From assembly GCA_018896315.1 (NCBI GenBank), contig JAHIMV010000081.1, positions 1 through 43,498 on the forward strand: a DNA stretch of 43,498 nt, in the 5' to 3' direction. The stretch's first letter is position 1; the number at the start of each line of letters is the position of its first letter. Both the position numbers and the translations under genes were made by a program. The notes beneath the pieces were generated by a model. The model made no database searches and had not been told where the DNA came from. It saw nothing but the letters and a program-made list of their open reading frames with translations. This DNA comes from Patescibacteria group bacterium (GTDB lineage Bacteria > Patescibacteriota > Patescibacteriia > UBA2591 > UBA6264). Shown one piece after another: positions 24,965 through 40,083 of the stretch.

Positions 24965-24974
24965 AGAGTTTTTT

Positions 24975-25018: not shown

Positions 25019-25031
25019 TTAGAAAACCTTT

Positions 25032-25089
25032 ACCCTGTTAAATAATTTCGCTTTTAGCGAAATTGCCGCAAGGCGGCATTTAACAGGGT
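25032..25089 (+). repeat. family A Y-shaped 58-nt core, copy a (rpsJ-rplC spacer)
   Basis: accctgttaaat[aatttcgc-tttt-agcgaaatt][gccgc-aag-gcggc]atttaacagggt: a 12-bp outer stem enclosing two hairpins. Confidence 0.9.
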
Positions 25090-25337
25090 TCTCGAAAATC
25101 TAACAAAATTTTCATCGTTCCCTAAACTCGAAAATTTTGAGATTTTCGGAATAATTTGATCAGGGGAAAGCAAGGTTAAAAGTGAACTCTTAAGTTTCAT
25201 AAGAGTTATTGTTTAATCAAACTTTTTCTTAATTTTGAGGTTCAAAATTCTCTAAAGAGATGACAATTTAGTCAAATTTTTCACAGCCAGGCTTAAGGTC
25301 AGAGAAATTTGGTCTCAAACCTGGTTTTTTAATACCT

Positions 25338-25955
25338 ATGAAATTCATTCTTGGGAAAAAAATAGAAATGTCCCAAATTTTTAAAGGGGACAAGGTTATT
25401 CCGGTAACAAAAATTCAAGCCGGCCCTTGTTTGATTACTCAAATTAAAACACAAGAAAAAGACGGTTATGAGGCTATTCAGATTGGATTTGCTAAGAAAA
25501 GAAAGAATACTAAATCATTATTAGGTCATTTAAAAAAGGGTTTAGCTGACAAAGAGTATAATCGATATTTAAAAGAATTTAAAACAGAAAGGGGTGATTT
25601 AAAAATTGGAGATAAGATAAAAGTTGATATTTTTCAACCTGGAGATAAAATAAAGATTGTTGGTACCTCTAAAGGAAAAGGGTTTCAAGGAGTAGTTAAG
25701 CGACATGGTTTTCATGGAGCATCAGCTACACATGGAACCAAAGATCAAGAAAGAATGCCTGGTTCAATTGGAGCCACTGGTCCTGCCAGAGTTTTTAAAG
25801 GAAAAAAAATGCCTGGAAGAATGGGAGGCAAACAAGTTACAGTTAAAATTTTAGAGATTATAGAGGTTAATCCAGAAGAAAATTTATTATTAGTCAAAGG
25901 ATCTGTTCCTGGGGCAAGGAACTCATTATTAGAAATTACTCAAGTAAAATATTAA
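25338..25955 (+). CDS. rplC: 50S ribosomal protein L3
   Basis: ILGKKIEMSQIF.., GKGFQGVVKRHGF, conserved cluster position. Confidence 0.93.
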   Translation: MKFILGKKIEMSQIFKGDKVIPVTKIQAGPCLITQIKTQEKDGYEAIQIGFAKKRKNTKSLLGHLKKGLADKEYNRYLKEFKTERGDLKIGDKIKVDIFQPGDKIKIVGTSKGKGFQGVVKRHGFHGASATHGTKDQERMPGSIGATGPARVFKGKKMPGRMGGKQVTVKILEIIEVNPEENLLLVKGSVPGARNSLLEITQVKY

Positions 25956-26650
25956 TGTTAAAAGTTTCAGTTTACAATCAAGAAGGAAAAGTAATTGGAC
26001 AAGAAGAATTAGATCCTGAAATTTTTGGATTGGAAAGTAAACCTGATTTAATTCATCAAACCGTAGTATCTCTTATGGCTAATCAGCGCCATGCTTTTGC
26101 TCATGTTAAAACTCGTTCAGAAGTACGGGGAGGAGGAAGAAAACCTTGGAGACAAAAGGGGACTGGTCGGGCTCGAGCAGGCACAATTCGTTCACCTTTG
26201 TGGCGGGGCGGTGGAATCACTTTTGGTCCAGATAAAAATAGGAATTATTCTCAGAAAATTAATAGAAAAGCTAAAAGACAAGTGCTTTTTATGTGTCTTT
26301 CTGATAAAGTTAAAGAAGAAAGAATGTATGTTTTGGATAAGTTAGAAATGCCTGAAATCAAAACCAAAAAGTTTACTCAAATTTTATTTAAGTTGATTCC
26401 TGAATATAAAGACAAGACTTCCGCCAAAGGCGGATCCGCCTCCGGCGGAAAAAAAATCCTTTTTGGCTTGCCTGAGAAGGATTTAAATATAATTAGATCT
26501 GTACGAAATATTAAAGGTTTAAAAACTATGCCGATTATTAATTTAAATATTTTAGACTGTTTAAAGGCAGACTATTTATTAACCACTTTAGACGGTGTAA
26601 AAAAAATTCAAGAACATTTTAAAATAGATGGCTCACCATTAAATAAATAA
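25955..26650 (+). CDS. rplD: 50S ribosomal protein L4
   Basis: RSEVRGGGRKPWRQKGTGRARAGTIRSPLWRGGG. ATG overlaps the rplC stop by 1 nt. Contains a GC-rich hairpin pair in frame at 26421..26448. Confidence 0.93.
   Translation: MLKVSVYNQEGKVIGQEELDPEIFGLESKPDLIHQTVVSLMANQRHAFAHVKTRSEVRGGGRKPWRQKGTGRARAGTIRSPLWRGGGITFGPDKNRNYSQKINRKAKRQVLFMCLSDKVKEERMYVLDKLEMPEIKTKKFTQILFKLIPEYKDKTSAKGGSASGGKKILFGLPEKDLNIIRSVRNIKGLKTMPIINLNILDCLKADYLLTTLDGVKKIQEHFKIDGSPLNK
26421..26448 (+). repeat. GC-rich double-hairpin motif inside rplD
   Basis: ccgcc-aaa-ggcgg at ccgcc-tcc-ggcgg, translated SAKGGSASGG. GC-rich island in an AT-rich gene. Confidence 0.75.
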
Positions 26651-26735
26651 AACATGGGAATTTTCACCCAGTTTAGAAATTTAATGGGGTAAAAGAAGTA
26701 ATTGATTGAAAATTAGATATATTAAAAATACTTTT

Positions 26736-27218
26736 ATGGCAGAAAAAAGACTTAAAAAATTTCTAACGGGGTTTAAAAGAAAAATAAAGCCAGCGGTTAA
26801 GAAAGAAGAAGTTAAAAAGGAAAAAGTGGAAAAGGCAAAGGAAATAGAAAAAGATGAGAAAATAGAAGATAAAAAGCAACAGAAATCTAAAACAGAAATA
26901 AAAAAAACTGTTAAAAAATTAATACAAAGACAAGGAGTTGATATCTCAATTTTACTAAGACCAATTATTACAGAAAAAGCAACTGACCAAGAGGTCAAGG
27001 GATGCTATATTTTTGAAGTTAATTCAAAGGCAAACAAAATTTCAATAAAAAAAGCAATTGAACAAATTTACGGAGTCAAACCCTTAAGAGTAAATATTAT
27101 TCGAGTACGTGGGAAAAAAGTAAGATATGGGCGTTCAACAGGTAAAACAAAGGCATGGAAAAAAGCTTTAGTTTTTCTAAAAAAAGGAGATAAGCTGCAG
27201 TTTGTGCAGAAATCCTAA
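26736..27218 (+). CDS. rplW: 50S ribosomal protein L23 with ~70-aa Lys/Glu-rich N-terminal extension
   Basis: L23 core ILLRPIITEKA..FEV...ANK..IK.A.E..YGVKP..VN begins about residue 75. First ATG is at 26736 (track start 26706 is TTG). Confidence 0.85.
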   Translation: MAEKRLKKFLTGFKRKIKPAVKKEEVKKEKVEKAKEIEKDEKIEDKKQQKSKTEIKKTVKKLIQRQGVDISILLRPIITEKATDQEVKGCYIFEVNSKANKISIKKAIEQIYGVKPLRVNIIRVRGKKVRYGRSTGKTKAWKKALVFLKKGDKLQFVQKS

Positions 27219-27395
27219 ATAATAAATAACAAATAACAAACAATATCCAATGACCAAAATCCAAATGACCAAAACAAATACGTTTAGAATTTAGAATTTT
27301 GCCCCGGCCTTCGTAGCCGAAGCTACTTCGGCGGAGTAGGCAATTTGTTTAGAATTTGGTGCTTGGTGTTTGGAATTTGGAGCGAAGCGACTATT
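27219..27395. repeat. structured spacer (rplW-rplB) ending in the gagcgaagcga..ATG motif
   Basis: ccaaaatccaaatgaccaaaacaaat versus atttgtttagaatttggtgcttggtgtttggaatttgg arms, GC hairpins in the centre. 3' end ggagcgaagcgactattATG resembles 830..849. Confidence 0.55.
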
Positions 27396-28238
27396 ATGCT
27401 TAAAATATCTAAACCAACAACTCCAGGTAGGAGAAAAATGAGCGTGGTTGATACTAGTGGACTATCAAAAGTGAGACCATTAAAGAAATTGGTTAGTATA
27501 AGAAAACAAAAAGCAGGCCGAAGCAAAGGAAAGATTACTGTTCGTCACCAAGGCGGGGGAGAAAAAAGATTTTACAGAAAGATTGATTTTAGGCAAGATA
27601 AATTTGATATCCCGGCGAAAGTTAAAACATTGGAATATGATCCAAATCGTTCTGCTTGGATTGCTTTATTACATTATACGGACGGAGAAAAGAGATATAT
27701 ACTTGCTCCGCACAGTCTTAAAGTAGGTGATGAGATTATTAGTTCAAAAAAGAAGATTGATGCAAAATTAGGCCATCGCATGCCTTTAAAATACATTCCA
27801 GTGGGCATGGCCATTCACAATATAGAATTAATGCCAAATCAAGGTGGAAAAATTGTTCGTTCGGCTGGTAATTCAGCTATTTTAATGGTTGTGAATGATG
27901 GGTTTGCGCAAATTAAACTGCCCTCATCTGAAAGAAGGCTTGTTAAAGAAGATTGTTTAGCTAGTTGCGGTCAGGTTAGTAATCCAGAGTGGCGATTTAT
28001 TCGCTGGGGAAAAGCTGGTAGGATGCGTCATAGAGGAATTAGACCTTCAGTTCGCGGTAAAGCAATGGCCCCAGTGGCTCATCCACACGGTGGAGGAGAG
28101 GGTAATTCACCTATTGGTTTAAAAAATCCTAAAACCCCTTGGGGAAAACCAGCCTTAGGGCCAAAGACTAGAAAAAAGAAAAAATGGACTAATAAATATA
28201 TTGTCCAAAGAAGAATTAAAAAAAGAAGAAAAAAGTAA
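27396..28238 (+). CDS. rplB: 50S ribosomal protein L2
   Basis: MLKISKPTTPGRRKMS.., HPHGGGEG. The track ORF start 27345 lies inside the upstream repeat, so the internal ATG at 27396 was chosen. Confidence 0.93.
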   Translation: MLKISKPTTPGRRKMSVVDTSGLSKVRPLKKLVSIRKQKAGRSKGKITVRHQGGGEKRFYRKIDFRQDKFDIPAKVKTLEYDPNRSAWIALLHYTDGEKRYILAPHSLKVGDEIISSKKKIDAKLGHRMPLKYIPVGMAIHNIELMPNQGGKIVRSAGNSAILMVVNDGFAQIKLPSSERRLVKEDCLASCGQVSNPEWRFIRWGKAGRMRHRGIRPSVRGKAMAPVAHPHGGGEGNSPIGLKNPKTPWGKPALGPKTRKKKKWTNKYIVQRRIKKRRKK

Positions 28239-28248
28239 AGGGCTTTCT

Positions 28249-28282
28249 TAAAAATTTCAAGTTGTAGACGTAGAAATTTTTA
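28249..28282 (+). repeat. H1 hairpin module, copy after the rplB stop
   Basis: taaaaatttc .. gaaattttta (10-bp stem, different sequence, same position). Preceded by taa-agggcttt. Confidence 0.7.
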
Positions 28283-28295
28283 TTAGAAAACCTTT

Positions 28296-28353
28296 ACCCT
28301 GTTAAATAATTTGTAAAGCAAATTAAAAATCAAAAATTTTTGTTTAACAGGGT
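28296..28353 (+). repeat. family A core, copy b (rplB-rpsS spacer), divergent inner hairpins
   Basis: Same outer stem accctgttaaa..tttaacagggt. Both inner hairpins are replaced by different self-complementary sequences (aatttg-taaag-caaatt; aaaaat-caa-aaattttt). Confidence 0.85.
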
Positions 28354-28383
28354 GCTCGAAAATTAATAAATTAATTTTTTCGC
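28354..28383 (+). promoter_or_regulatory. leader module L1 (gctc + AT palindrome + ttcgc-ATG) before rpsS
   Basis: gctcgaaaattaataaattaattttttcgc then ATG. No SD-like purine tract. Confidence 0.8.
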
Positions 28384-28680
28384 ATGGGAAGAAGTTTGAA
28401 AAAAGGACCTTGGGTTGACCCAAGATTACTCAAAAAAATTTCCAATTTAAAAAGAGGAGATAAAACAATAATTAAAACCTGGTCACGTAATTCAACAATT
28501 ACTCCGGAAATGATTGGTTTTACAATTGGGGTCCATAATGGTAAGACACATTTATCAGTATTTATTGTTGAAAATATGGTCGGGCACAAGCTTGGAGAAT
28601 TTTCTCCGACCAGAAAATTTGTCAAACATGGAGGTAAGATGCAAAGAGGATTAGAAGCAGCCGTTAAGAAATCAAAATAA
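28384..28680 (+). CDS. rpsS: 30S ribosomal protein S19
   Basis: [34 protein letters not shown]. Confidence 0.95.
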
Positions 28681-28883
28681 TCCCTCACCCTTTGGCGATA
28701 ATACTTCGCATTAGTGCTTCGCATTTTTAAACAAGTGTATTTAAAATTAAAAATAAAAAATCAAAATGCAAAATTTAGGTATCAAAAATTTTTCTTGAAA
28801 ATTTTTGATGATTGTATTTTATTTAATTTTAACATTTTTAATTGTCATTTTGATATTTGATATTTACATTTTACATTTATATT
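28681..28883. repeat. AT-rich long-hairpin spacer (rpsS-rplV), E-like
   Basis: Central 11-bp hairpin atcaaaaattt/aaatttttgat (28781..28809) flanked by an A-rich left arm and a quasi-complementary T-rich right arm (..ttttaattgtcattttgatattt). Confidence 0.6.
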
Positions 28884-29438
28884 ATGCAAGTAAAAGCTAA
28901 AGGAAAATATTTAAGAATATCCAGTAAAAAGATGAGGCTGGTAACAGACCTAATTAGAGGAATGGACTTAAAAGATGCCTTAGATTCTTTAAATTTTGTT
29001 CCTAAAAAGTCAGCCCGTTTTATTAACAAGGTTTTAAAGTCAGCTTTAGCTAATGCAGAACATAATTTTGATTTAAAAAAAGAAAATCTTTTTATTAAAG
29101 AAATTTTTGTTAATGAAGGGCCTACTCTTAAGAGATGGAGGCCAAGAGCTTTTGGTCGGGCCGGACAGGTTCGTAAAAGAAGCTCACATTTAGAAATTAT
29201 TTTAGGGGAAAAAATTCCTAGTTCAGAGACCAGATCTGTTAAAACAAAAATTAAAGAACCAATAATTGAATCTATTTCTAAAGATAAGATTGAAGAAAAA
29301 AAGCCGGTGGAAGAAACAGAAGAAGAAACGTTAAATCGACTTCAAGGAAAACATCAATCTAAACCAAATTATTACCAAAAAAAGGGTAAAGGGTTTAGAG
29401 GGAGTTTAAAAAAGATTTTTAGAAGAAAAACTATATAA
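28884..29438 (+). CDS. rplV: 50S ribosomal protein L22 with ~70-aa C-terminal extension
   Basis: MQVKAKGKYLRISSKKMRLV.DLIRG..V..AL..L.F, RA.GRA..VRKR.SH. Internal ATG at 28884 chosen over the track start 28857. Confidence 0.88.
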   Translation: MQVKAKGKYLRISSKKMRLVTDLIRGMDLKDALDSLNFVPKKSARFINKVLKSALANAEHNFDLKKENLFIKEIFVNEGPTLKRWRPRAFGRAGQVRKRSSHLEIILGEKIPSSETRSVKTKIKEPIIESISKDKIEEKKPVEETEEETLNRLQGKHQSKPNYYQKKGKGFRGSLKKIFRRKTI

Positions 29439-29448
29439 AGAGCTTTGT

Positions 29449-29481
29449 CTGAAATTTGGAGAACTAGCGAACAAATTTCAG
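29449..29481 (+). repeat. H1 hairpin module, copy after the rplV stop
   Basis: ctgaaatttg ..agcgaa.. caaatttcag (10-bp stem). Preceded by taa-agagctttgt. Confidence 0.7.
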
Positions 29482-29494
29482 TAACAAAACCTTT

Positions 29495-29622
29495 ACCCAG
29501 CACTTATTTTGCGAAGCAAAAACAAAATTTTATATATAACAAGATAAGATAGGTTTATTTCTCGCGAAAGAGCGTTAAAACACTCTTTCGCTAAGACTCA
29601 CTTGGCAGAATAAGTGCTGGGT
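29495..29622 (+). repeat. family B element, copy 2 (rplV-rpsC spacer), diverged
   Basis: Same termini (acccagcacttatt / aataagtgctgggt) and the same inner gcgaaagag hairpin, with several substitutions and indels. Confidence 0.85.
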
Positions 29623-29687
29623 GCTCAAATTTGTAACGAAATTTCCTTCGTTACTTCGTAACTCGTAAATTTAGACAAATTTAGCAT
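29623..29687 (+). promoter_or_regulatory. leader module L2 variant before rpsC
   Basis: gctcaaatttgtaacgaaatttccttcgttac...gacaaatttagcat then ATG. 5' caaatttg and 3' caaattt co-vary relative to the other copies. Confidence 0.7.
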
Positions 29688-30332
29688 ATGGGAAGAAAAG
29701 TAAATCCAAAAATTTTCCGTATTCCCTTAATCAGAGATTGGGAATCAAAGTGGTTTGCAAAAAAGCACGAATTTAAACGATTCTTAAAAGAGGATATACA
29801 GATTAGAGAGTTTTTATCAAAAAGACTAAAGAATTGTGGTATTTCTAATATTAGTATTGAAAGGTTGGCTAATATTATAAGAATCAGCATATCCACTGGT
29901 AAGCCTGGATTAATTATTGGTCGAGGAGGTCTTGATATTGAAAAATTAAAAAAAGAATTAAAAGTTTTTGTCAGCGATGGAATTGTTTTAGAAGTTAATG
30001 TTATTGAAGAGAAAAAACCAATGCTTTCCGCTGATGTGATTTTAGAAGGAGCAATTGCTGATTTAGAAAAAAGGTTTCCTTTCCGTCGAGTGATGAAAAA
30101 AGTTATTAGACAGGCTAAAACAAGCGAGGCCAAAGGAATGAAAATCATCCTTAGCGGACGTTTGGGGGGAGTTGAGATTTCTCGATCAGAAAAATTGATT
30201 TGGGGGAACTTACCGCTTCATACTTTGCGAGCAGACATTGATTATGCTCGTGGCACAGCCGCAACAACATATGGTTCAATCGGAGTTAAAATCTGGGTTT
30301 ATCGAGGAGAAAAATTTAGTAATTCTGTCTGA
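29688..30332 (+). CDS. rpsC: 30S ribosomal protein S3
   Basis: MGRKVNPKIFRI..W.SKWFA, KH domain GKPGLIIGRGG, GRLGG.EI.R.E. Confidence 0.95.
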   Translation: MGRKVNPKIFRIPLIRDWESKWFAKKHEFKRFLKEDIQIREFLSKRLKNCGISNISIERLANIIRISISTGKPGLIIGRGGLDIEKLKKELKVFVSDGIVLEVNVIEEKKPMLSADVILEGAIADLEKRFPFRRVMKKVIRQAKTSEAKGMKIILSGRLGGVEISRSEKLIWGNLPLHTLRADIDYARGTAATTYGSIGVKIWVYRGEKFSNSV

Positions 30333-30378
30333 TATTTTTAAGTCCAGAGGACGTAGAAAATTCAGCTACAGAATTGCT

Positions 30379-30508
30379 ACCCAGCACTTATTTTGCGAAA
30401 CAGAAACAAAATTTTATATATATAACAAGGTAAAATAAGTTTATTTTTCGCGAAAGAGCGTTAAAACACTCTTTCGCCAAGACATACCTAGCAAAATAAG
30501 TGCTGGGT
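30379..30508 (+). repeat. family B element, copy 3 (rpsC-rplP spacer)
   Basis: Reads identically to 7747..7876. Confidence 0.9.
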
Positions 30509-30539
30509 GCTCAAAAATTAATAAATTAATTTTTTTCGC
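30509..30539 (+). promoter_or_regulatory. leader module L1 before rplP
   Basis: gctcaaaaattaataaattaatttttttcgc then ATG. Confidence 0.8.
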
Positions 30540-30959
30540 ATGTTAATGCCCAAGAAACAAAAGTATAGAAAGAGCCACAAAGGAAGAAGGAGAACAAAAA
30601 GTCAAGCAACAAGGGGAACTACGGTTAGTTTTGGTGATTTTGGATTAAAAACATTAGAGCATCGTTGGATCACTGCTCGTCAAATTGAGACGGTGCGCCG
30701 AACACTTACCCGAGTATTTAAAAAAAGAGGAAAGATTTGGATTAGAATTTTTCCTAATAAACCAGTTACGGCTAAAAGTTCAGAGATTCCTATGGGCGGG
30801 GGTAAAGGAGCGGTTGACCACTATGTCGTTGCGGTAAAACCAGGAATGATTCTTTTTGAGGTCACCGGAATTGATAAAGAATCGGCCCAAAAAGCGTTTA
30901 AAGCAGCTTCATATAAATTGCCAGTGAAAACTAAGTTTGTTAGCAAAGATAATATTTAA
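30540..30959 (+). CDS. rplP: 50S ribosomal protein L16
   Basis: MLMPKKQKYRK.HKGR.., RWITARQIE..RR.LTR, MGGGKG. Confidence 0.95.
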   Translation: MLMPKKQKYRKSHKGRRRTKSQATRGTTVSFGDFGLKTLEHRWITARQIETVRRTLTRVFKKRGKIWIRIFPNKPVTAKSSEIPMGGGKGAVDHYVVAVKPGMILFEVTGIDKESAQKAFKAASYKLPVKTKFVSKDNI

Positions 30960-30962
30960 AAA

Positions 30963-31148
30963 ATGAAGACAGAGGAACTTAAACCAAAAACAAAAAAAGA
31001 ACTGGAAAGATTGTTAGAAGATTCTAGGGAAAAACTACGTAATCTACATTTTGATATTCAAATGAAGCAGTCAAAAAATGTAAGGGAAATAAGAAAAGCA
31101 AAGAAATTAATTGCTAAAATACTTACATTTATTAATCAAAAAAATTAA
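30963..31148 (+). CDS. rpmC: 50S ribosomal protein L29
   Basis: 61 aa, LKPKTKKELERLLEDSREKLRNLHF, conserved position between rplP and rpsQ. Confidence 0.85.
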   Translation: MKTEELKPKTKKELERLLEDSREKLRNLHFDIQMKQSKNVREIRKAKKLIAKILTFINQKN

Positions 31149-31149
31149 T

Positions 31150-31401
31150 ATGGCCAAAAAAAGATTTCAAGGAGTAGTGACTAGTGATAAGATGGATAAA
31201 ACCATTGTTGTTATGATAAATCGGACAAAGGTGCATCCTATCTATAAAAAGAGATATCAGGTTAGTAAAAAATATAAAGTTCATGATCAGAAAAATGAAG
31301 CTAAAATTGGTGATCAAGTTACTTTTGAGGAATGCAGACCTTTGTCAAAAGATAAAAAGTGGAGATTAATAACGATTTTGTCTGAAAAAGCGAGCTCGTA
31401 G
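31150..31401 (+). CDS. rpsQ: 30S ribosomal protein S17
   Basis: MAKKRFQGVVTSDKMDKTIVV......HPIYKKR...SKKYKVHD..N.A.IGD.V...E.RPLSK.K.W. ATG at 31150 (the track start 31111 overlaps rpmC). Confidence 0.92.
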   Translation: MAKKRFQGVVTSDKMDKTIVVMINRTKVHPIYKKRYQVSKKYKVHDQKNEAKIGDQVTFEECRPLSKDKKWRLITILSEKASS

Positions 31402-31430
31402 AGCGAAGGTTTTTTGGTAACAAAATCGTT

Positions 31431-31488
31431 ACCCTGTTAAATAATTTCGCTAAAAGCGAAATTGCCGCAGGGCGGCATTTAACAGGGT
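31431..31488 (+). repeat. family A core, copy c (rpsQ-rplN spacer)
   Basis: As copy a, but the loop of hairpin 1 is aaaa instead of tttt and hairpin 2 is gccgc-agg-gcggc. Confidence 0.9.
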
Positions 31489-31518
31489 GCTCAAAAATTA
31501 ATAAATTAATTTTTTCGC
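31489..31518 (+). promoter_or_regulatory. leader module L1 before rplN
   Basis: gctcaaaaattaataaattaattttttcgc then ATG. aaaaattaat/attaattttt is a 10-bp self-complement. Confidence 0.8.
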
Positions 31519-31890
31519 ATGATTCAACCGGAAACAAGACTAAAAGTTATTGATAACACTGGAGCTAAAGAAATACAGTGTATTCGCGTTTTAGGCGGTT
31601 ATAGGAAGAGATATGCTCGTATTGGTGATATTATTACAGCGACAATTAAAAAAGCTGTTCCTCACACTTCAGTAAAAAAAGGAGAGGTGATTCATGCGGT
31701 TATTGTTAGAACAAAAAAAGAAACTCGTCGGGCCAATGGTGTTTATATCAGATTTGATGATAATGCCGCGGTGATTGTTGATAGAAAGACTAAAGAACCA
31801 AAAGGAGGTAGAGTTTTTAGTGTTGTTGCTAGAGAATTAAGAAAAAAAGGTTTTACCAAGATCGTCTCTTTAGCCCCCGAAGTACTTTAG
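31519..31890 (+). CDS. rplN: 50S ribosomal protein L14
   Basis: [27 protein letters not shown]...RYA.IGD.I. Confidence 0.96.
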
Positions 31891-31949
31891 TGATTTTATC
31901 TGATAAAATCGAGGCCGCCGGGCGAAGATTTTTCAGCTACAAAATCGCT

Positions 31950-32007
31950 ACCCTGTTAAATAATTTCGCTTTTAGCGAAATTGCCGCAAAGCGGCATTTA
32001 ACAGGGT
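31950..32007 (+). repeat. family A core, copy d (rplN-rplX spacer)
   Basis: accctgttaaataatttcgcttttagcgaaattgccgcaaagcggcatttaacagggt. Confidence 0.9.
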
Positions 32008-32037
32008 GCTCAAAAATTAATAAATTAATTTTTTCGC
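32008..32037 (+). promoter_or_regulatory. leader module L1 before rplX
   Basis: Identical to the rplN copy. Confidence 0.8.
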
Positions 32038-32346: not shown

Positions 32347-32356
32347 AGGGCTTTGT

Positions 32357-32392
32357 CTAAATTTTGGAGTCCGAAGGGCGAACAAAATTTGG
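32357..32392 (+). repeat. H1 hairpin module, copy after the rplX stop
   Basis: ctaaattttg ..ggcgaa.. caaaatttgg. Preceded by taa-agggctttgt. Confidence 0.7.
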
Positions 32393-32405
32393 TAACAAAA
32401 CCTTT

Positions 32406-32463
32406 ACCCTGTTAAATAATTTCGCTTTTAGCGAAATTGCCGCAGGGCGGCATTTAACAGGGT
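32406..32463 (+). repeat. family A core, copy e (rplX-rplE spacer)
   Basis: accctgttaaataatttcgcttttagcgaaattgccgcagggcggcatttaacagggt. Confidence 0.9.
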
Positions 32464-32520
32464 GCTCATAATTGTAACGAAATTTATTTCGTTACGAGTA
32501 ACTTATAAATTTCGATAATT
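32464..32520 (+). promoter_or_regulatory. leader module L2 before rplE
   Basis: gctCATAATTgtaacgaaatttatttcgttacgagtaacttataaatttcgatAATTATG. Confidence 0.75.
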
Positions 32521-33069: not shown

Positions 33070-33078
33070 ATTTGACAT

Positions 33079-33264: not shown

Positions 33265-33402
33265 GATAAAAATTCAAATATCAAAAATTAAAAATCAAAA
33301 TGACATATCAAAATCTAAAATTAATAAATAATAAAAATTATCCCGAAGGGATACCTAAATTTTGCATTTTGCATTTTGCATTTTGCATTTAACGAAACGT
33401 TT
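33265..33402. repeat. AT-rich long-hairpin spacer (rpsN-rpsH), E-like
   Basis: Left arm atcaaaaattaaaaatcaaaatgac.., central tatccc-gaa-gggata hairpin (33339..33353), right arm four tandem ttttgca units. Confidence 0.6.
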
Positions 33403-33807
33403 ATGACTGATCCAATTGCCGACATGCTAACAAGAGTTCGTAATGCTTTGGCTATTAAAAAACCAGAGATAGTTTTGCCTTATTCCAAGGTTAAGTTTAA
33501 TATTGCTAAAGTATTAGAAAAAGAAAAATTGATTGAAAAAGTGGAAATAATTGATGCGGCGAAAAGTAAAACAGGATTTAAGCAGTTAAAAATTAAATTA
33601 AAGTACAATGAAGACAATCAACCAGTTATTGGTACTTTAAAAAGAATCAGCAGCCCAGGTCAACGTATTTATGTTAAAAAAGATAAAATTCCCAAAGTTT
33701 TAAATGGTTTGGGAATGAATATTTTATCTACCTCTAAAGGCTTAATGACCGGACAAGAAGCTAGAGAGAAGGGTTTAGGAGGAGAATTAATTTGTGAAAT
33801 ATGGTAA
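33403..33807 (+). CDS. rpsH: 30S ribosomal protein S8
   Basis: MTDPIADMLTRVRNAL... Internal ATG at 33403 chosen; the track start 33376 lies in the ttttgca tandem repeat. Confidence 0.93.
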   Translation: MTDPIADMLTRVRNALAIKKPEIVLPYSKVKFNIAKVLEKEKLIEKVEIIDAAKSKTGFKQLKIKLKYNEDNQPVIGTLKRISSPGQRIYVKKDKIPKVLNGLGMNILSTSKGLMTGQEAREKGLGGELICEIW

Positions 33808-34074
33808 CGCGATACCAATATACGAATGCATGCGAATGATACGAATAAAGCACACGAATAGTAAAACATAATGCTAATCTACGAATGTATGCGAATGCTA
33901 CGAATTACGAATAAAGCGCGCAAATTATTATTCGCGTCATTCGCGTGAATTAGCGTATTAGTGTCGCTACTTTTAACACAACATGAATGCGCCCACACGA
34001 ATATTAGTATAATCAGTATCCATTCGTATATTAGCATCGATTAAATTAATTCGTATATTAGCATCGATATTATT
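33808..34074. repeat. family D copy 4 (rpsH-rplF spacer), expanded, 267 nt
   Basis: cgcgataccaatatacgaatgcatgcgaatgatacgaat ... attcgtatattagcatcgat duplicated in tandem at the 3' end. Many acgaat/attcg units. Confidence 0.8.
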
Positions 34075-34623
34075 ATGTCAAGAATTGGTAAAAAAATTAT
34101 TTCTGTTCCAGAAAATGTTGAAATAAAAGTACAAGATCAACAGATTTTAGTCAAAGGGCCAAAAGGCGAATTAAAGCAATTTTTGCCAGATTTTGTTAAA
34201 ATTGAAATAAAAGATAATCAATTGAAAGTTTTAGTTAAAAATCCTGAAGAAAAAGAACAAAAAGCTTGTTGGGGGACGTTTGCTAGTCTGATTTCTAATA
34301 TGATTCAAGGGGTAACCCAAGGATTTAAAAAAAAACTAGAATTAGTAGGGGTGGGTTATCGGGCAGAAAAACAAGGAGATAAGATTATTCTTAATGTTGG
34401 TTTTTCCCATCCAGTAGAATATTTAGTTCCTAAAAATATTGAAGCAGACGTTGAACAAAGAACAATTATTATTCGGGGATTTGATAAACAGTTAGTAGGA
34501 GAAACAGCAGCACAGATTAGGAAGTTTAGAAAACCAGAACCATATAAGGGAAAGGGAATTAAATATTCCGATGAAGTAATTCGTCGAAAAGCTGGCAAAA
34601 AGGTTGCTGGAGCAGGAACATAG
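34075..34623 (+). CDS. rplF: 50S ribosomal protein L6
   Basis: MSRIGKKIISVPENVEI......I.VKGPKGEL, GVGYRA, PEPYKGKGI.Y. Confidence 0.95.
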   Translation: MSRIGKKIISVPENVEIKVQDQQILVKGPKGELKQFLPDFVKIEIKDNQLKVLVKNPEEKEQKACWGTFASLISNMIQGVTQGFKKKLELVGVGYRAEKQGDKIILNVGFSHPVEYLVPKNIEADVEQRTIIIRGFDKQLVGETAAQIRKFRKPEPYKGKGIKYSDEVIRRKAGKKVAGAGT

Positions 34624-34911
34624 AAAAATCAAAAATCAAAAATCAAAAATCAAAATTATTTTATTAAAAAATCAAAAAAGAACAAGTTCCTCTCAAGCGA
34701 GAGTAAAATGGAAAACGTAAAAAGGAATTGCTGATTGCCGATTGTTGATTGTTTGGAAAGATAGACAAAGGTTTCAATTAGCAATTAACAATTAAGACTA
34801 GTTTTTAATTTTTACATTTTAATTTGTCATTTTACATTTTGATGGTTCGACTTTGCTCACCATCAATCCTGAGCGTAGTCGAAGGATTGATATTTAAATT
34901 TTACATTTTCT
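34624..34911 (+). repeat. family E element, copy 1 (rplF-rplR spacer), carrying a nested 50-nt hairpin element
   Basis: (aaaatc)n left arm, centre gaacaagttcctctcaagcgagag..aattgctgattgccgattg..caattagcaattaacaatt, right arm tttacattttaatttgtcattttacattttga. Confidence 0.85.
34841..34890 (+). repeat. 50-nt hairpin element nested in family E copy 1
   Basis: gatggttcgactttgctcaccatcaatcctgagcgtagtcgaaggattga. Absent from the otherwise collinear copy 2 (..ccattttga|tatttaaatt..). ttga occurs on both sides. Confidence 0.9.
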
Positions 34912-35277
34912 ATGGCTGAAGTAAAAAAACAATTGCAGAGAGAAAAAAGACATCGCCGAGTTCGCGCAAAAATTAATGGGACAAGTGAATGTCCAAGACT
35001 CTGTGTTTTTAGAAGCAATAAATATATTTATGTGCAGTTGATTGATGATCAAAAAGGGATAACTTTATTATCTGTTACAGATAATAAACCAAAAACAAAA
35101 TCTAAAACTAAAGAATCTTCAAATATAAATAGCGCCTTAGAGGTTGGAAAAATTTTAGCAAAAAAAGCTATTGAAAAGAAAATTAAAAAAATAGTTTTTG
35201 ATCGTGGAGGATATAAGTATCATGGTCGAGTTAAGGCAATAGCGGAGGGAGCAAGGCAAGGTGGACTTAAGTTCTAA
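34912..35277 (+). CDS. rplR: 50S ribosomal protein L18
   Basis: [49 protein letters not shown]. Confidence 0.95.
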
Positions 35278-35499
35278 ATCAAAAATCAAAAATCAAAAAT
35301 CAAAATTATTTCATTAGAAAACTAAATAAGAACAAGTTCCTCGCAAGCGAGAGTAAAATGGAAAACATAAAAAAGAATTGCTGATTATTCGGAAAGATAT
35401 ACAAAAATGTCAATTAGCAATTAACAATTAAGATTAGTTTTTAATTTTTACATTTTAATTTGTCATTTTCCATTTTGATATTTAAATTTTACATTTTCT
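35278..35499 (+). repeat. family E element, copy 2 (rplR-rpsE spacer)
   Basis: Collinear with copy 1 apart from a short internal deletion and absence of the nested hairpin. Ends ..tatttaaattttacattttctATG exactly as copy 1 does. Confidence 0.85.
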
Positions 35500-35988
35500 A
35501 TGACAAAAGAAAAAAGAATAAAACGTAGGGAGTTGCCAGGAGTCAAAATTGAGCCAGAGTTTATTCAGCAATTAGTTGATTTAGCTAGAGTAACTAGAGT
35601 TGTTAAGGGAGGAAAACGTTTAAGTTTTCGTGCCTGTATGGTTATTGGAAATAAAAAAGGAGAAATTGGAATGGGATTAGCTAAAGGGACAGATGTCGCC
35701 GGAGCTATTCATAAAGCAGTTCGTAAGGCAAATAAAAATTTAATCAAAGTAACAATTGTTAATGATACTATCCCTCATTGGGTTAGAGTTAAGTATGGAG
35801 CGGCTCAAGTTTTATTACGACCAGCCAGAAAAGGCCATGGAATTGTCGCTGGAGGAGCTGTTAGAACAGTTTTATCTTTATCAGGTATTAGAAATGTTAC
35901 CGCTAAAATTCTGGGGTCAAAGAGTAAAATGAACAATGTTAGAGCAACGATTAAAGCTTTACAGTCATTAAAAATTCCTAAGGTTTAA
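35500..35988 (+). CDS. rpsE: 30S ribosomal protein S5
   Basis: V.L.RVTRVVKGGKR.SFRA..V.GN..G..G.G.AK, RPA..G.GI.AGG.VR. Confidence 0.95.
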   Translation: MTKEKRIKRRELPGVKIEPEFIQQLVDLARVTRVVKGGKRLSFRACMVIGNKKGEIGMGLAKGTDVAGAIHKAVRKANKNLIKVTIVNDTIPHWVRVKYGAAQVLLRPARKGHGIVAGGAVRTVLSLSGIRNVTAKILGSKSKMNNVRATIKALQSLKIPKV

Positions 35989-35992
35989 AATT

Positions 35993-36472
35993 ATGACAGT
36001 TAAATTATCTAATTTAAAACCAGGGTCTAAGGCAAGACGCCGCTCAAGAAGAGTTGGCAGGGGAAATAATGCTTCTGATCCAGGCACTTATTCTGGCCGG
36101 GGCATGAAGGGACAAAGATCAAGATCTGGCGGAAAAAAGGGTCTTAAAATTAGAGGCCTAAGAAGAAACTTGAGAAGCATGCCAAAATTAAAGGGATTTA
36201 ATAAAAGAAAGTCTTTAAGCATTAAACCAATAAGTTTGAAAGATTTAGAAAACAAATTCAAAGAAAATGAAATTGTTGATCTTGCTAAATTGGTTAAGAG
36301 TGGTTTAATTAAAAAGAAAGACCGTCGAGTTAAAATTTTAGCTCAAGGGAAGATAACAAAAAAATTAACTATTAAAGCTCATCAATTTTCAAAAGCGGTG
36401 GAAAAGGCTGTTAAAAAAGCAGGGGGAAAGATAGTGATTTTATCTGATAAAATAGAGCTTAAAAAGCGATAA
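35993..36472 (+). CDS. rplO: 50S ribosomal protein L15 (last 12 codons lie in a repeat cassette)
   Basis: LSNLKPG..ARR...RVGRG...G.....GRG.KGQ..RSG. Follows rpsE directly, with no rpmD. Confidence 0.93.
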   Translation: MTVKLSNLKPGSKARRRSRRVGRGNNASDPGTYSGRGMKGQRSRSGGKKGLKIRGLRRNLRSMPKLKGFNKRKSLSIKPISLKDLENKFKENEIVDLAKLVKSGLIKKKDRRVKILAQGKITKKLTIKAHQFSKAVEKAVKKAGGKIVILSDKIELKKR

Positions 36473-36493
36473 TTTTTCAGCTACAAAATCGCT

Positions 36494-36551
36494 ACCCTGT
36501 TAAATAATTTCGCTTTTAGCGAAATTGCCACAGGGTGGCATTTAACAGGGT
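36494..36551 (+). repeat. family A core, copy f (rplO-secY spacer)
   Basis: Hairpin 2 is gccac-agg-gtggc, a double compensatory change relative to gccgc..gcggc. Confidence 0.9.
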
Positions 36552-36583
36552 GCTCGAAAATTAATTAACATTAACTTTCTCGC
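36552..36583 (+). promoter_or_regulatory. leader module L1 variant before secY
   Basis: gctcgaaaattaattaacattaactttctcgc then ATG. Still an imperfect AT palindrome. Confidence 0.7.
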
Positions 36584-37861
36584 ATGTGGGGAAAAATAAG
36601 ACAACTTTGGCAAATTAAAGATTTAAGAAACAGTCTTCTTTTTGTTATGGCCATGTTGATTATTTTTCGTATTGCCGCACATATTCCAGTCCCGGGAGTA
36701 AACTTAGATAATTTAAAAGATTTTTTCTCGCGCAATGAGATGTTGGGAATGTTAAATATCCTTTCTGGAGGAGCTATGTCTAATTTTTCCTTAGTGGCAA
36801 TGGGTATTGCTCCTTATATCACTGCTTCAATTATTATGCAACTCTTAACTATGATTGTTCCCCGCTTAGAAGAACTTAGCAAAGAAGGAGCAAGTGGTTA
36901 TCAAAAGATTAATCAATATTCTCGTTTATTAACAATTCCTTTGGCTATTCTACAGTCTTATGGAATGATTATGATTTTTAGCCAATCTAGCCAGCCAATT
37001 CTGGGTTCTTTATCAACTTTTGAATTAGCCAATGTTTTAATGGTTATGACTGCTGGGACAGTTTTTTTAATGTGGTTAGGAGAATTAATTACTGAAAAGA
37101 AAATTGGCAATGGTATTTCTTTGCTTATTTTTGCTGGAATTGTTGAACGAGTTCCTATTTCTATTCAGCAAACGATTGCTACTTTTTCTGCAGATCAAAT
37201 TATTAATTTTTTAGTTTTAGTAGGTTTAGCTTTAGTGACAATTGCTGGAGTGGTAATTATTACAGAAGGTCAGCGCAATATTCCAGTTACTTATGCCCGA
37301 CGCATTCGTGGTCATCGTATGTATGGCGGAACAGATACTTATTTACCGATGAAGGTTAATCAGGCGGGCATGATTCCTATTATTTTTGCCATTTCTATTG
37401 TTCTTTTTCCAGGTTTAATAGGGCAACTTTTAGCCAGATCAGGTTCAACTTTTATAGCTAAGTTTGGTCAAATTTTAATGGGAATTACTCAAAATCAACT
37501 TATTTATGGTTTGTTATATTTTACTTTAGTGGTCGCTTTTACTTATTTTTATACTAGTATTATTTTTCATCCAAAACAAATAGCTGACAATTTACAAAAG
37601 CAAGGAGGTTTTGTTCCTGGTTTAAGACCGGGCGAGCCAACAGCTAATTACTTGTCCACAGTTAGTGTTCGTATTATGCTTGCCGGAGCTTTGTCTTTAG
37701 GGCTCATTGCTGTTTTGCCCATTATTACCCAAAATGTTTTTAGACTTTCTACTTTTGTTGTTGGCGGAGCAGCTATTTTAATTGTCGTGAGCGTGGTTTT
37801 AGAGTCTGTTAAACAAATTCAAGCCCAGATTGCAATGCATGAATATGAGGGTTTAGGTTAG
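36584..37861 (+). CDS. secY: preprotein translocase subunit SecY
   Basis: 10-TM protein, LGI.PYITASII.QLL, GEL.TE.GIGNGISL.IFAGI. Confidence 0.96.
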   Translation: MWGKIRQLWQIKDLRNSLLFVMAMLIIFRIAAHIPVPGVNLDNLKDFFSRNEMLGMLNILSGGAMSNFSLVAMGIAPYITASIIMQLLTMIVPRLEELSKEGASGYQKINQYSRLLTIPLAILQSYGMIMIFSQSSQPILGSLSTFELANVLMVMTAGTVFLMWLGELITEKKIGNGISLLIFAGIVERVPISIQQTIATFSADQIINFLVLVGLALVTIAGVVIITEGQRNIPVTYARRIRGHRMYGGTDTYLPMKVNQAGMIPIIFAISIVLFPGLIGQLLARSGSTFIAKFGQILMGITQNQLIYGLLYFTLVVAFTYFYTSIIFHPKQIADNLQKQGGFVPGLRPGEPTANYLSTVSVRIMLAGALSLGLIAVLPIITQNVFRLSTFVVGGAAILIVVSVVLESVKQIQAQIAMHEYEGLG

Positions 37862-38127
37862 AAAAATCAAAAATTAAATATCAAAAATCAAAATTATTTT
37901 ATTAGAAAATTAAATAGGAACAAGTTCCTCGCAAGCGAGAGCAAAATGGAAAACATAAAAAGGAATTGCTGATTGCTGATTGCCGATTGTTGATTGTTTG
38001 GAAAGATAGACAAAGGTTTCAATTAGCAATTAATAGCTAAGAATAGTTTTTAATTTTTACATTTTAATTTGTCATTTTCCATTTTGATATTTACATTTTG
38101 CATTTGACCGAGTGTTAACGAGGAAAT
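37862..38127 (+). repeat. family E element, copy 3 (secY-adk spacer)
   Basis: Collinear with copies 1 and 2 through ..gtcattttccattttgatattt, then diverges into an SD-containing adk leader. Confidence 0.85.
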
Positions 38128-38799
38128 ATGATTAAAAAGAATTTTAATTTAATTATTCTGGGACCAGCTGGTTCAGGCAAGGGAACACAAGCTCATTTGT
38201 TAATCAAAGAGTTTAGTATGAAAACAATTGAGATGGGAGAATTGGTCAGAGGAGCAGCCAAGGAAAAAACAAAACAGGCTAAATTAATTGCTTGGATGCA
38301 TGACGTGGGCATGCATTTTTCAGATGATTTTATTTTTAATCTTTTTGAAAAAAACGTTAAAAAGCTTAATAAAAAATATAAGCTTTTAGTTGACGGATAT
38401 CCAAGAACAGCTGGACAAGCTTGGGATTTGCAAAGAATTTTAAAAAAATATTATAAAAACAGGCCAAGCTTAGCCATTTGGATCAATGTTAGCGATAAAG
38501 AATCTTTAAAAAGATTGCTGAGTCGAGCCCTTTGTTCTAAATGTGGCAAGATTTTTCCTAATCGAAAAATTAAAAAATGCCCAGATTGCGGCGGTTTAGT
38601 TAAAGTCAGGGGTTATGATAAAGACAAAAAAGCAATTCAAAAAAGATTAGATTGGTTTCATGATCATGTAGTTCCAGCTATTGAGTTTTATAAACAGCGT
38701 AAAATGTTAGTTCAGGTTAATGGAGAGCAGTCAGTAGAAAAAGTTTTTAAAGAAACTTTAAGAAAAATAAATCGATACCAATATACGAATGCATACTAA
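38128..38799 (+). CDS. adk: adenylate kinase (Zn LID); last 9 codons lie in a family D repeat
   Basis: ILGPAGSGKGTQA, VDGYPRT, LID CSKCGK..CPDCGG. GAGGA Shine-Dalgarno sequence upstream. Confidence 0.9.
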   Translation: MIKKNFNLIILGPAGSGKGTQAHLLIKEFSMKTIEMGELVRGAAKEKTKQAKLIAWMHDVGMHFSDDFIFNLFEKNVKKLNKKYKLLVDGYPRTAGQAWDLQRILKKYYKNRPSLAIWINVSDKESLKRLLSRALCSKCGKIFPNRKIKKCPDCGGLVKVRGYDKDKKAIQKRLDWFHDHVVPAIEFYKQRKMLVQVNGEQSVEKVFKETLRKINRYQYTNAY

Positions 38800-38869
38800 T
38801 TATACTAATCATTATTTGAATCATTTTTATTTGTATTATTAGTATGAATTTGTATATTAGCATTGCATT
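38773..38869. repeat. family D copy 5 (adk 3' end to the map start)
   Basis: cgataccaatatacgaatgcatactaa is read as adk codons RYQYTNAY-stop. Right arm attagtatgaatttgtatattagcattgc. Confidence 0.8.
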
Positions 38870-39631
38870 ATGATTCCCATTAAAACAGAAAAAGAAATTG
38901 AAATCATGCGTCAGGCAGGTCAGATTTTGTCTGATGTTATAAAAAAAATCGTCCCGTATGTTTGTCGGGGCGTTTCTACTTTAGAATTAGACCAATTGGC
39001 AGAGAAATTAATTTATCAAGCTGGAGCCAAGCCAGGATTTAAAGGATATAGTGACAAAAAGAAGATTTATCCGGCTACACTTTGCACTTCAATTAATGAA
39101 CATGTAGTTCATACTATTCCCAAGAGAAATAAATTTTTAAAAGATGGTGATATTATTAGCCTGGATTGCGGGGTAAAATATAAGGGATATTATTCAGATA
39201 TGGCCATAACTGTAGCCGTAGGAAAAATTCCTTATAAAACCAAAGAGTTAATTAAAACAACTAAAGAAGCATTAGAGGTGGCCATTAAAAACATAAAAGA
39301 AGGGGTTTATTTAGGCGATATTTCTCATTTGATTCAATCTTTTGTTGAAAAAAAAGGGTTTTCAGTGGTGCGCCAGCTTTCTGGACATGGTATTGGCAAA
39401 GAACTTCATGAAAAACCAACTATTTTAAATTATGGCAAAAAAGGAACAGGTCCTATTTTAAAATCAGGCATGGTTTTAGCCTTTGAACCCATGGTTAATA
39501 TGGGGGACTGGCCAGTTAAAACACTTAAAGATGGCTGGACTATTGTTACAGAAGATGGAAGTTTGTCGGCTCATTTTGAACATACTATTTTAGTGACAAA
39601 AAAAGGGGCTGAAGTTTTAACAAAAATGTAA
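38870..39631 (+). CDS. map: type I methionine aminopeptidase
   Basis: IKTEKEIEIMRQAG, VHTIP, DGDIISLDCG..Y.GY.SDMA.T, GHGIG...HE.P, FEPM, HFEHT. Confidence 0.95.
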   Translation: MIPIKTEKEIEIMRQAGQILSDVIKKIVPYVCRGVSTLELDQLAEKLIYQAGAKPGFKGYSDKKKIYPATLCTSINEHVVHTIPKRNKFLKDGDIISLDCGVKYKGYYSDMAITVAVGKIPYKTKELIKTTKEALEVAIKNIKEGVYLGDISHLIQSFVEKKGFSVVRQLSGHGIGKELHEKPTILNYGKKGTGPILKSGMVLAFEPMVNMGDWPVKTLKDGWTIVTEDGSLSAHFEHTILVTKKGAEVLTKM

Positions 39632-39639
39632 CTTTTTAA

Positions 39640-40083
39640 ATGAAATTTTTAGGTATTGATCCAGGAAAAAGATATATTGGATTAGCCATGGCTGATGACC
39701 AAGTAAAAATAGCTATGCCTTATCAGGTTTTAGATATGAATGACCATGAATCTTTGTTTAAAGAATTAGAAAAAATTGTAGCTAAGGAAAAAATACAAAA
39801 AATTATTGTTGGTTATCCAATTGGTATGTCGGGAAAACCAACAGAGCAAACCAAGATAACAGAACAATTTATAAGACAGTTAAAAAAACAGGTCAACCCT
39901 GTTAAATCCCGCAAAGCGGGAATTTCGCCAAAGGCGAAATTATTTAACAGGGTAAATATTCCAATAATTAGATTTGACGAAAGATTAAGCTCAAAAATGG
40001 CTGACAAGCTGTCATCTGGTCAGAAGCAGAATCACGCTGTAGCCGCTAATATTATTCTACAAGATTATTTAGACAAAAATTAA
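39640..40083 (+). CDS. ruvX: YqgF/RuvX putative pre-16S rRNA nuclease / Holliday junction resolvase-like
   Basis: LGIDPGKRYIGLA, IVVGYPIGMSG, FDERLSS. Contains an in-frame 60-nt copy of the Y-shaped repeat at 39895..39954. Confidence 0.85.
   Translation: MKFLGIDPGKRYIGLAMADDQVKIAMPYQVLDMNDHESLFKELEKIVAKEKIQKIIVGYPIGMSGKPTEQTKITEQFIRQLKKQVNPVKSRKAGISPKAKLFNRVNIPIIRFDERLSSKMADKLSSGQKQNHAVAANIILQDYLDKN
39896..39953 (-). repeat. family A core, copy g, inverted orientation, inside the ruvX coding sequence
   Basis: accctgttaaat[cccgc-aaa-gcggg][aatttcgcc-aaa-ggcgaaatt]atttaacagggt. Hairpin order is reversed relative to copies a-f. Translated in frame as NPVKSRKAGISPKAKLFNRV. Confidence 0.9.

Follow-up and report, generated by a model that had tools for sequence, protein, structure and literature searches.

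What are the short, self-complementary units that recur between the ribosomal-protein genes of a Patescibacteria group bacterium, and is their structure kept at the level of RNA or of DNA? We analysed one 43,498-nt stretch (assembly GCA_018896315.1, contig JAHIMV010000081.1; the whole stretch is called the window hereafter), which has ~32% G+C, carries all its long open reading frames (ORFs) on the + strand, and contains a bacterial S10/spc ribosomal-protein cluster followed by secY, adk, map and ruvX (genes assigned with Pfam). The original prediction described seven copies of a 58-nt, Y-shaped core (family A) in this region, read them as selected for structure and not for sequence, and suggested a tRNA-mimic processing signal as one possibility. 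Our analysis indicates, with a probability that we put at about 0.72, that all seven are copies of a non-autonomous element, a piece of mobile DNA of the MITE type (miniature inverted-repeat transposable elements). We regard this MITE-like family as new, and as unusual in its breadth and its T-shaped core.

Seven copies of a branched palindrome and their spread

Searching both strands of the window for the 12-mer ACCCTGTTAAAT with at most one mismatch gave 16 matches against 0.54 expected, and 14 of the 16 form the paired arms of seven 58-nt units, which lie at all seven positions originally predicted. A covariance model of the T/Y-shaped core, built from twelve units (R1), recovers exactly these seven copies plus one marginal match. 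They are listed here together with three of the genes beside or around them.

25032-25089, + strand: copy a, between rpsJ and rplC; exact arms; fold of -30.6 kcal/mol, z -7.1; 91.1 bits with R1
28296-28353, + strand: copy b, between rplB and rpsS; A+T-rich (AATTTG..CAAATT / AAAAAT..ATTTTT); 42.9 bits with R1
31431-31488, + strand: copy c, between rpsQ and rplN; recognised by arms, fold and R1
31950-32007, + strand: copy d, between rplN and rplX; recognised by arms, fold and R1
32406-32463, + strand: copy e, between rplX and rplE; recognised by arms, fold and R1
36494-36551, + strand: copy f, between rplO and secY; hairpin 2 is GCCAC/GTGGC
39896-39953, - strand: copy g, in the opposite orientation and in frame inside ruvX; source of the extra NPVKSRKAGISPKAKLFNRV
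26630-26695, + strand: possible decayed or minimal copy, ACCCAGTTTAG-AAA-TTTAATGGGGT; only 14.2 bits and E 0.17 with R1, not established
24605-24964, + strand: rpsJ (Pfam)
25338-25955, + strand: rplC (Pfam)
39640-40083, + strand: ruvX (yqgF), the host gene of copy g (Pfam RuvX, 2.7e-30)

Folding reproduces the predicted architecture, in which a 12-bp outer helix encloses a 9-bp and a 5-bp hairpin at a three-way junction without unpaired bases. The fold reaches -29 to -32 kcal/mol (z -6.9 to -8.0) for six units and for both strands of the seventh copy, and is weaker for copy b (-16.2 kcal/mol, z -4.0), of which the second hairpin is all A-T and not predicted, and the 3′ arm has one mismatch (GTTTAACAGGGT). 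Copy g scores 89.6 bits with R1 on the minus strand vs 47.1 on the other. The compensated changes that had been reported could be found in copy f (GCCAC/GTGGC), in copy g (CCCGC/GCGGG), and in hairpin 1 of copy g, where T-A becomes C-G. Copy c has a flipped hairpin 1: its loop reads TAAAA, the reverse complement of TTTTA in the other copies. The inner hairpins of copy b do differ from the rest, as had been claimed, but were not rewritten in place: its interior is near-identical in three genome stretches outside the window (L019, L023 and L091; such stretches are labelled by L and a number), and copy b belongs with these to an A+T-rich subfamily. The weak match at 26630-26695 spans the 3′ end of an ORF (25955-26650) and the following spacer; it may be what is left of a copy that has decayed or lacks its hairpins.

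Confinement to this one genome, an outcome that would have refuted the original reading, was not observed. A scan of one genome per species for the two exact arms ACCCTGTTAAAT/ATTTAACAGGGT, separated by 24-52 nt, gave matches in at least 119 genome stretches. Among the matches listed, the record titles name Patescibacteria (many classes), Omnitrophota, WOR-3, Desulfobacterota, Bacteroidota, Cloacimonadota, Spirochaetales, Verrucomicrobia (Udaeobacter) and Gammaproteobacteria, about nine phyla in all, and the matches include Desulfatiglandales contigs of 2.8 Mb and 4.1 Mb. CP179888.1 (Nealsonbacteria) and CAXXJJ01 (Desulfatiglandales) are among the carriers. Copies elsewhere measure 48-83 nt, with the arms 24-59 nt apart, and two inner hairpins are predicted in 104 of 128 of them, their hairpin sequences being unrelated; the interiors of the window copies are 85-94% identical to copies in Sungiibacteriota and Nealsonbacteria records. 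The flanks lengthen the arms to TT(T/C)..(G/A)AA in 77-87 of 105 copies elsewhere, the TT and AA being retained even within coding sequence, so the inverted repeat is really ~15 bp long. In an Omnitrophota stretch (L086) the element likewise lies between S10/spc ribosomal-protein genes, at 2173-2230, 5375-5432 and 5837-5894.

Tandem copies 1-2 bases apart (..CAGGGT GA ACCCCGTTAAAT..) were often seen, for example at 4607-4701 of L118, 2050-2162 of L005 and 4967-5060 of L025, which suggests insertion beside existing copies; where the 3′ flank is GAAC/GAAT, as is common, a second, degenerate copy may in part begin there. That the motif matches no described RNA or repeat family holds in searches of Rfam and the literature. 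Rfam gave no match to family A at the gathering score, and chance-level ones only at E up to 10 in a permissive search with three copies; in the literature library searched no description of the element was found, the exact 12-mers giving one unrelated primer match. Plasmid and phage BLAST searches returned no match to the element, and 2.9 million viral contigs returned one match only.

Pairing pattern, insertion sites and direct repeats

Pairing statistics were taken from a model-based alignment of 148 distinct matches. Pairing is kept in 98.9% of cells, vs 79.5% in shuffles and 32-50% with slid partners, and 615 cells have changed on both sides, vs 141 in shuffles. In the hairpins, ~609 cells changed on both sides vs ~21 on one side only (G-U type), 13 of the latter at the loop-closing pair; both-side changes are present at all 14 of the 14 hairpin pairs, and an independent count was also made. 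The claim that structure and not sequence is kept therefore stands for the hairpins, but not for the outer helix, of which the sequence, and not the structure alone, is retained from phylum to phylum. The hairpins contain hardly any G-U pairs. Functional RNA helices usually contain several per cent of G-U, whereas a palindrome obliged to pair on both DNA strands has no such content; the joint change of both sides with G-U nearly absent is thus the pattern of a DNA palindrome. In L004 and L022 the core is inverted within an identical frame relative to the window, and single hairpin loops are reverse-complemented between copies c and a and, among near-identical copies, as TTC vs GAA and TTT vs AAA. 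Such inversion of a hairpin or of the core, a behaviour of DNA palindromes, offers a mutational route to 'compensated' changes without selection at the RNA level.

RuvX, the product of the host gene of copy g, is 147 aa long in the window vs 127 aa in homologues, and the difference is one clean 20-residue insert derived from copy g. A structure model of low confidence (mean pLDDT 62.8) places the insert between a helix (residues 69-85) and a strand (109-113), with pLDDT below 50 at residues 89-102, and suggests that it would form a loop. In other genomes 19 copies were found inside ORFs, 15 of which read xPVK(S/C)...FNRV, and all ten of the ten ORF hosts tested have Pfam domains, including GatA amidase, DnaE, KsgA, RmlD, ribulose-phosphate epimerase (Rpe) and glycosyltransferases.

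A metagenomic contig (L121) shares the gene order of the window from rplE to ruvX and a glycosyltransferase gene, and its RuvX is 90% identical to that of the window over aligned columns. Its ruvX is uninterrupted, an empty site. Spacers of 111-288 nt in the window, among them the one between rplO and secY with copy f, correspond to 4-24 nt in L121. This comparison covers copies f and g, the positions of copies a-e lying outside L121; R1 finds no copy in these 16 kb of a close relative, nor in two sister contigs. Family A shows several traits of a MITE, namely terminal inverted repeats, small size, no associated ORF, and presence or absence at orthologous sites relative to L121. The terminal inverted repeats, ~14-15 bp long, T(T/C)ACCCTGTTAAAT ... 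ATTTAACAGGGT(G/A)A, bracket two short hairpins, so that either DNA strand, or the transcript, folds into a T/Y shape. Copies are present or absent between close relatives, occur in both orientations, and lie either in spacers or, in frame, inside genes.

With respect to flanking genes that are co-directional the orientation is unbiased, at 20:23 when judged by flank asymmetry and 36:27 by the best model strand. Direct repeats of at least 7 nt flank 17 of 131 copies, vs an expectation of 1.65 (maximum 5) in cross-element shuffles and of 1-5 with one flank slid by 10-80 nt. They are most often 7 nt long, are typically arranged as repeat-TT[core]GA-repeat, and begin two bases outside ACCC.

The gene-oriented cassette around the cores

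One correction to the original description concerns the surroundings of the cores: copies a-f are the centres of longer, 137-nt repeats that fill whole spacers (family D1). Such a cassette consists of a 5′ hairpin module with a covarying stem, a box ..ACAAAACCTTT (or ..AAAATCGCT) followed by the core, and GCTC with an A+T-rich 3′ module, which ends ..TCGC directly before ATG in four of the six cassettes with family A cores (b, c, d and f). All six cores sit at one fixed point of the cassette, ..TTT|ACCC...GGGT|GCTC..; the cassettes are listed below with family D2, an apparent larger sibling.

24965-25123, + strand: cassette around copy a, 5′ hairpin module, ..AAAACCTTT, core, TCTCGAAAAT..; family D1, from the alignment
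28239-28383, + strand: cassette around copy b, the whole rplB-rpsS spacer; ends ..TTTTTTCGC directly before ATG
31386-31518, + strand: cassette around copy c, its 5′ module overlapping the 3′ end of rpsQ
31891-32037, + strand: cassette around copy d, the whole rplN-rplX spacer
32347-32520, + strand: cassette around copy e, with an alternative 3′ module, GCTCATAATTGTAACGAAATTT..TTCGTTAC
36449-36583, + strand: cassette around copy f, its 5′ module encoding the last rplO codons
30353-30515, + strand (also 7721-7883 and 29467-29629): family D2, ~160 nt, with ACCC..GGGT tips

The rplO product is 159 aa long in the window vs 150 aa in L121. The frame, i.e. the cassette apart from its core, is co-oriented with the downstream gene in all cases examined, and all nine occurrences of GGGTGCTC in the window are on the + strand. 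At least three cores can take each other's place in the frame: the G+C-rich and the A+T-rich cores of family A, and D2, which occupies the same point of the same gene-oriented frame. D2 has 18-bp arms (ACCCAGCACTTATTTTGC/GCAAAATAAGTGCTGGGT), an outer stem and two inner hairpins (-51.1 kcal/mol, z -9.3), and looks like a larger sibling of family A. Unlike the core, the frame is always co-oriented and takes several cores, so it would be either a preferred, oriented target or part of a larger composite carrying the leader of the downstream gene. No empty frame was found in the window, and a metagenome scan with the 16-mer frame pattern TTTCAGCTACAAAAYC gave 120 essentially random matches, none with the frame.

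Other spacers of the window also contain repeats. A third core, at 21771-22030, has the end ..GGCAAAATTGAGGCGGGGT, with the same 3′ frame GCTCATAATTGTAACGAAATTT..TTCGTTAC behind it, and lies upstream of a gene for a 363-aa ADK-domain protein. Three spacer cassettes of 220-290 nt, at 34624-34911 (rplF-rplR), 35278-35499 (rplR-rpsE) and 37862-38127 (secY-adk), have runs of AAAAATC heptamers, a central G+C hairpin and a periodic tail of the TTTACATTTT type; the same three junctions measure 4-19 nt in L121. A further spacer family, made of CGCGATACCAATATACGAAT.. and ATTAGTATAATTAGTATCAATTCGTATATTAGCATCGAT units, is found at 5354-5441, 8438-8534, 24480-24604, 33808-34074, 38800-38869 and 42836-42990. 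The motif GAACCTTTCGCT..GAACCTTGAAATTAAA..TTTTAATTATA, at 6117-6178 and 16116-16257, is common to the close relative (851-969 of L121), and may be a promoter, a leader or another repeat.

Probable mobile DNA, its alternatives and its known counterparts

If the units are MITE-type elements, a transposase supplied in trans would recognise their arms. Inverted repeats together with a putative target duplication suggest an enzyme of the DDE type; no such enzyme was found in the DNA searched around the copies. The complementarity of the hairpins would be maintained at the DNA level, possibly by template switching or 'quasipalindrome correction', and also by flip-flop of the hairpins and of the whole core, perhaps through a folded intermediate needed for mobility. 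Cassettes would have filled the spacers of the S10/spc operon, and the seventh copy would have landed in ruvX, where it persists as a putative 20-residue loop. Each transcribed copy is expected to add ~-30 kcal/mol of RNA structure (-16 for copy b), which may alter mRNA decay or processing as a side effect; the RNA effects of the element are probably by-products. Insertion would explain why the structured S10/spc spacers are 110-290 nt long here vs 4-24 nt in the close relative.

Several observations weigh against a mobile element. The cross-phylum labels are record titles of metagenome bins, and arm conservation is partly ascertained, because the search pattern required exact arms. A clear direct repeat accompanies only ~13% of copies and none of the seven in the window, and the distance from repeat to arm varies (0-4 and 0-6 nt). 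The ruvX insert adds 60 nt and not the 69 nt expected from core + 4 + 7; because no target duplication is visible there, and because the 5′ flank differs (KQV vs EFL in the relative), its exact boundaries are undefinable. Conserved inner hairpins are atypical of MITEs, and the strict co-orientation of the cassette with the downstream gene in this lineage may point to a role in expression. Neither an autonomous element nor a transposase turned up in ~1.5 Mb of DNA around the copies, whole genomes not having been scanned; no protein family other than housekeeping ones is enriched beside the copies; and no distant arm pair encloses a transposase-like ORF.

Long arm-bounded candidates in L068, L070, L050, L118 and L018 were rejected, since they contain ordinary genes and no transposase. 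The one in L068, a Stahlbacteria contig, has at 101-950 an ORF that by eye resembles a metallo-beta-lactamase fold and has CCCTGTTAAA arms, inverted and separated by 838 nt, on either side; the arrangement may be due to chance or to capture of a gene between two half elements.

A further step, which we consider a minor possibility, is that the folded T-shaped form itself, with its two inner hairpins and perfect three-way junction in an active part, is recognised and moved by a structure-specific enzyme, which would make the element a new class of bacterial mobile DNA. This would be analogous to the action of parvoviral Rep on the inverted terminal repeat (ITR) or of IntI on attC. If so, near-identical copies would trace DNA exchange between ultra-small symbionts (Patescibacteria, Omnitrophota) and large-genome Desulfobacterota and Bacteroidota, and the element would have been co-opted here, as part of a gene-oriented cassette, to serve expression between cistrons of the ribosomal-protein operon.

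Among the alternatives, the one that survives best, unlikely as it is, is mobile DNA moved as a folded single strand by an HUH or tyrosine enzyme (REP/RAYT-, IS200/IS605- or IS91-like) and not by a DDE enzyme, the architecture being analogous to the T-shaped parvovirus ITR recognised by Rep. It would fit the conserved structure of both inner hairpins and the existence of flip and flop forms, an asymmetric T..G at -1/+1 that correlates with hairpin order (40 T/G vs 16 C/A), and copies that often abut a degenerate copy two bases off (..GGGT GA ACC..). As most copies, and the ruvX insert, lack a visible target duplication, an HUH-type mechanism stays a live rival. However, HUH-type transposition makes no flanking direct repeats, and direct repeats of ~7 nt are enriched at the junctions. 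The copies also favour neither strand with respect to the direction of genes, no Y1/Y2 transposase was observed beside them (a genome-wide search was not made), and the 5′ GTAG or CGTC tag of REP elements (PMC3733652) is absent here.

We hold it quite unlikely that the units are a functional RNA, in which the Y-shaped transcript would act as an intercistronic signal (an RNase III site, a block against 3′ exonucleases or an insulator of translation). Such a role would account for the six spacer copies all lying on the sense strand, ~30 nt upstream of start codons and with a common leader, for the very stable fold and strong covariation, for the constant co-orientation of the framed cassette with the downstream gene, and for the copies in the ribosomal-protein operon of Omnitrophota L086. 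Since the arms are a perfect palindrome and give the same outer RNA helix either way, the missing orientation bias is not decisive against RNA. What opposes it is the near-absence of G-U pairs, the in-frame copies inside protein genes of many lineages, the close relative with spacers of 4-24 nt and no element, and the subset of copies with flanking direct repeats. The special case of a tRNA mimic for RNase P or RNase Z, raised in the original prediction, found no support: neither ARAGORN nor the Rfam tRNA model RF00005 reports anything like a tRNA at the copies, and the junction is without the unpaired conserved nucleotides that ribozymes and tRNA mimics need. A tRNA mimic is unlikely also because a 12-bp helix closed by a perfect three-way junction is no acceptor/T-arm stack. 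The same two tools place the true tRNAs of the window, four in number, at 2239-2727.

Very improbable is a protein-binding DNA site spread by selection, be it a DNA-uptake pair, an Xer/dif- or attC-like site, a nucleoid or gyrase site or, as a variant, a 'mobile promoter' of which the arm supplies an outward -35 box; in-frame copies and empty sites fit insertion, not selection for a site. The arm does contain TGTTAAAT, which the XerD arm of E. coli dif shares (TTATGTTAAAT), and GTTAAAT/ATTTAAC, fitting the letters of the attC core consensus, and at copies a, b, c, d and f its TTAACA lies 17-18 nt from TAAATT-like hexamers. An Xer/dif site has two 11-bp arms around a 6-8-bp central region and one locus per replicon, whereas here the two XerD-like arms face outward, the wrong way, 24-59 nt apart, folding forms one arm-length of duplex, and seven copies are dispersed in 15 kb. 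An attC site reads 5′-RYYYAAC ... GTTRRRY-3′, has extrahelical bases and lies in cassette arrays next to intI; the order here is the reverse (GTTAAAT ... ATTTAAC, i.e. GTTRRRY..RYYYAAC), the stems are perfect, and the copies lie scattered between housekeeping genes. The 58 promoter-like matches of the region are no enrichment over shuffles (55.7), so no promoter is claimed.

Taken as a mobile element, family A would work like the Correia/NEMIS, ERIC and REP elements and especially, given its in-frame insertion, like the Rickettsia palindromic elements (RPEs). With the Correia/NEMIS MITEs of Neisseria it shares short, non-coding units with terminal inverted repeats, a target duplication (putative in family A) and no transposase of their own, which are scattered in operon spacers, co-transcribed and hairpin-forming. 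Correia elements are ~100-155 bp long, restricted to one genus, and have 26-bp repeats, a TA duplication and one long hairpin, whereas the present element has 48-83 bp, 14-15-bp arms, direct repeats of ~7 bp in a subset, a branched two-hairpin core and hosts in many phyla. RPEs are likewise palindromic, have no known mobilising enzyme, and insert in frame in housekeeping genes as extra peptide segments (here RuvX; elsewhere GatA, DnaE and KsgA). They are 100-150 bp long and confined to Rickettsia and relatives; compared by description only, the present element differs in being shorter and cross-phylum and in having sequence-conserved arms, and we know of no reported sequence similarity between the two. 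The RAYT-mobilised REP/REPIN elements resemble it as short extragenic palindromes of conserved structure, with high copy number in operon spacers and the ability to stabilise upstream mRNA. REPs are species-specific, make no target duplication and rarely lie inside genes. Their single hairpin bears a tetranucleotide tag, GTAG or CGTC, on its 5′ side (PMC3733652), whereas the arms of family A begin (TT)ACCC without such a tag, its core is branched, and a subset of its copies has direct repeats.

The ends of IS982C (pNZ4000) begin ACCC..(..GGGT), like the arms of families A and D2, but only 6 of 12 bases match overall, and the direct repeats of our element lie two bases outside ACCC. A tBLASTn search with the IS982C transposase against the ~1.5 Mb of DNA around the copies found no IS982-like ORF. 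IS982 parents are documented to yield MITEs, e.g. MITECca01 of Cardinium (PMC9769881), and we treat a relationship to IS982 as a lead only. In architecture, the element resembles the T-shaped ITR of adeno-associated virus (AAV), which also has an outer stem, two small hairpins and a perfect three-way junction, occurs in 'flip' and 'flop' forms, and maintains perfect complementarity at the DNA level. The AAV ITR is a Rep-recognised replication origin of 125-145 nt at the ends of a linear single-stranded viral genome; family A, in contrast, is a dispersed chromosomal repeat without a linked Rep gene, and the likeness is one of resemblance only.

A single species or genus is the normal range of a bacterial MITE or REP family, while this element has the same 12-15-bp ends across many phyla. 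A further distinction is its branched core, which is conserved in structure. Its hosts are for the most part uncultivated, and the genomes of several are tiny and presumed to contain hardly any mobile DNA. The element is tolerated inside essential genes and within the most conserved operon of the cell. The element could mark horizontal DNA flow and serve as a handle for finding an unknown transposase. It is also a hazard for annotation, as a source of false 'structured RNA' candidates, extra protein segments and contig breaks.

Two further features of the window were observed. No Shine-Dalgarno-like sequence precedes the start codons in the spacers of the window and L121 (e.g. tcttATG, ataaATG, TTTTTTCGCATG), and translation initiation in this lineage may proceed without one. 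The anaerobic ribonucleotide reductase gene nrdD (8535-16115) encodes a product of 2526 aa, a length due to at least three insertions of inteins with LAGLIDADG homing endonucleases, which represent a second kind of selfish element on the same contig as family A.

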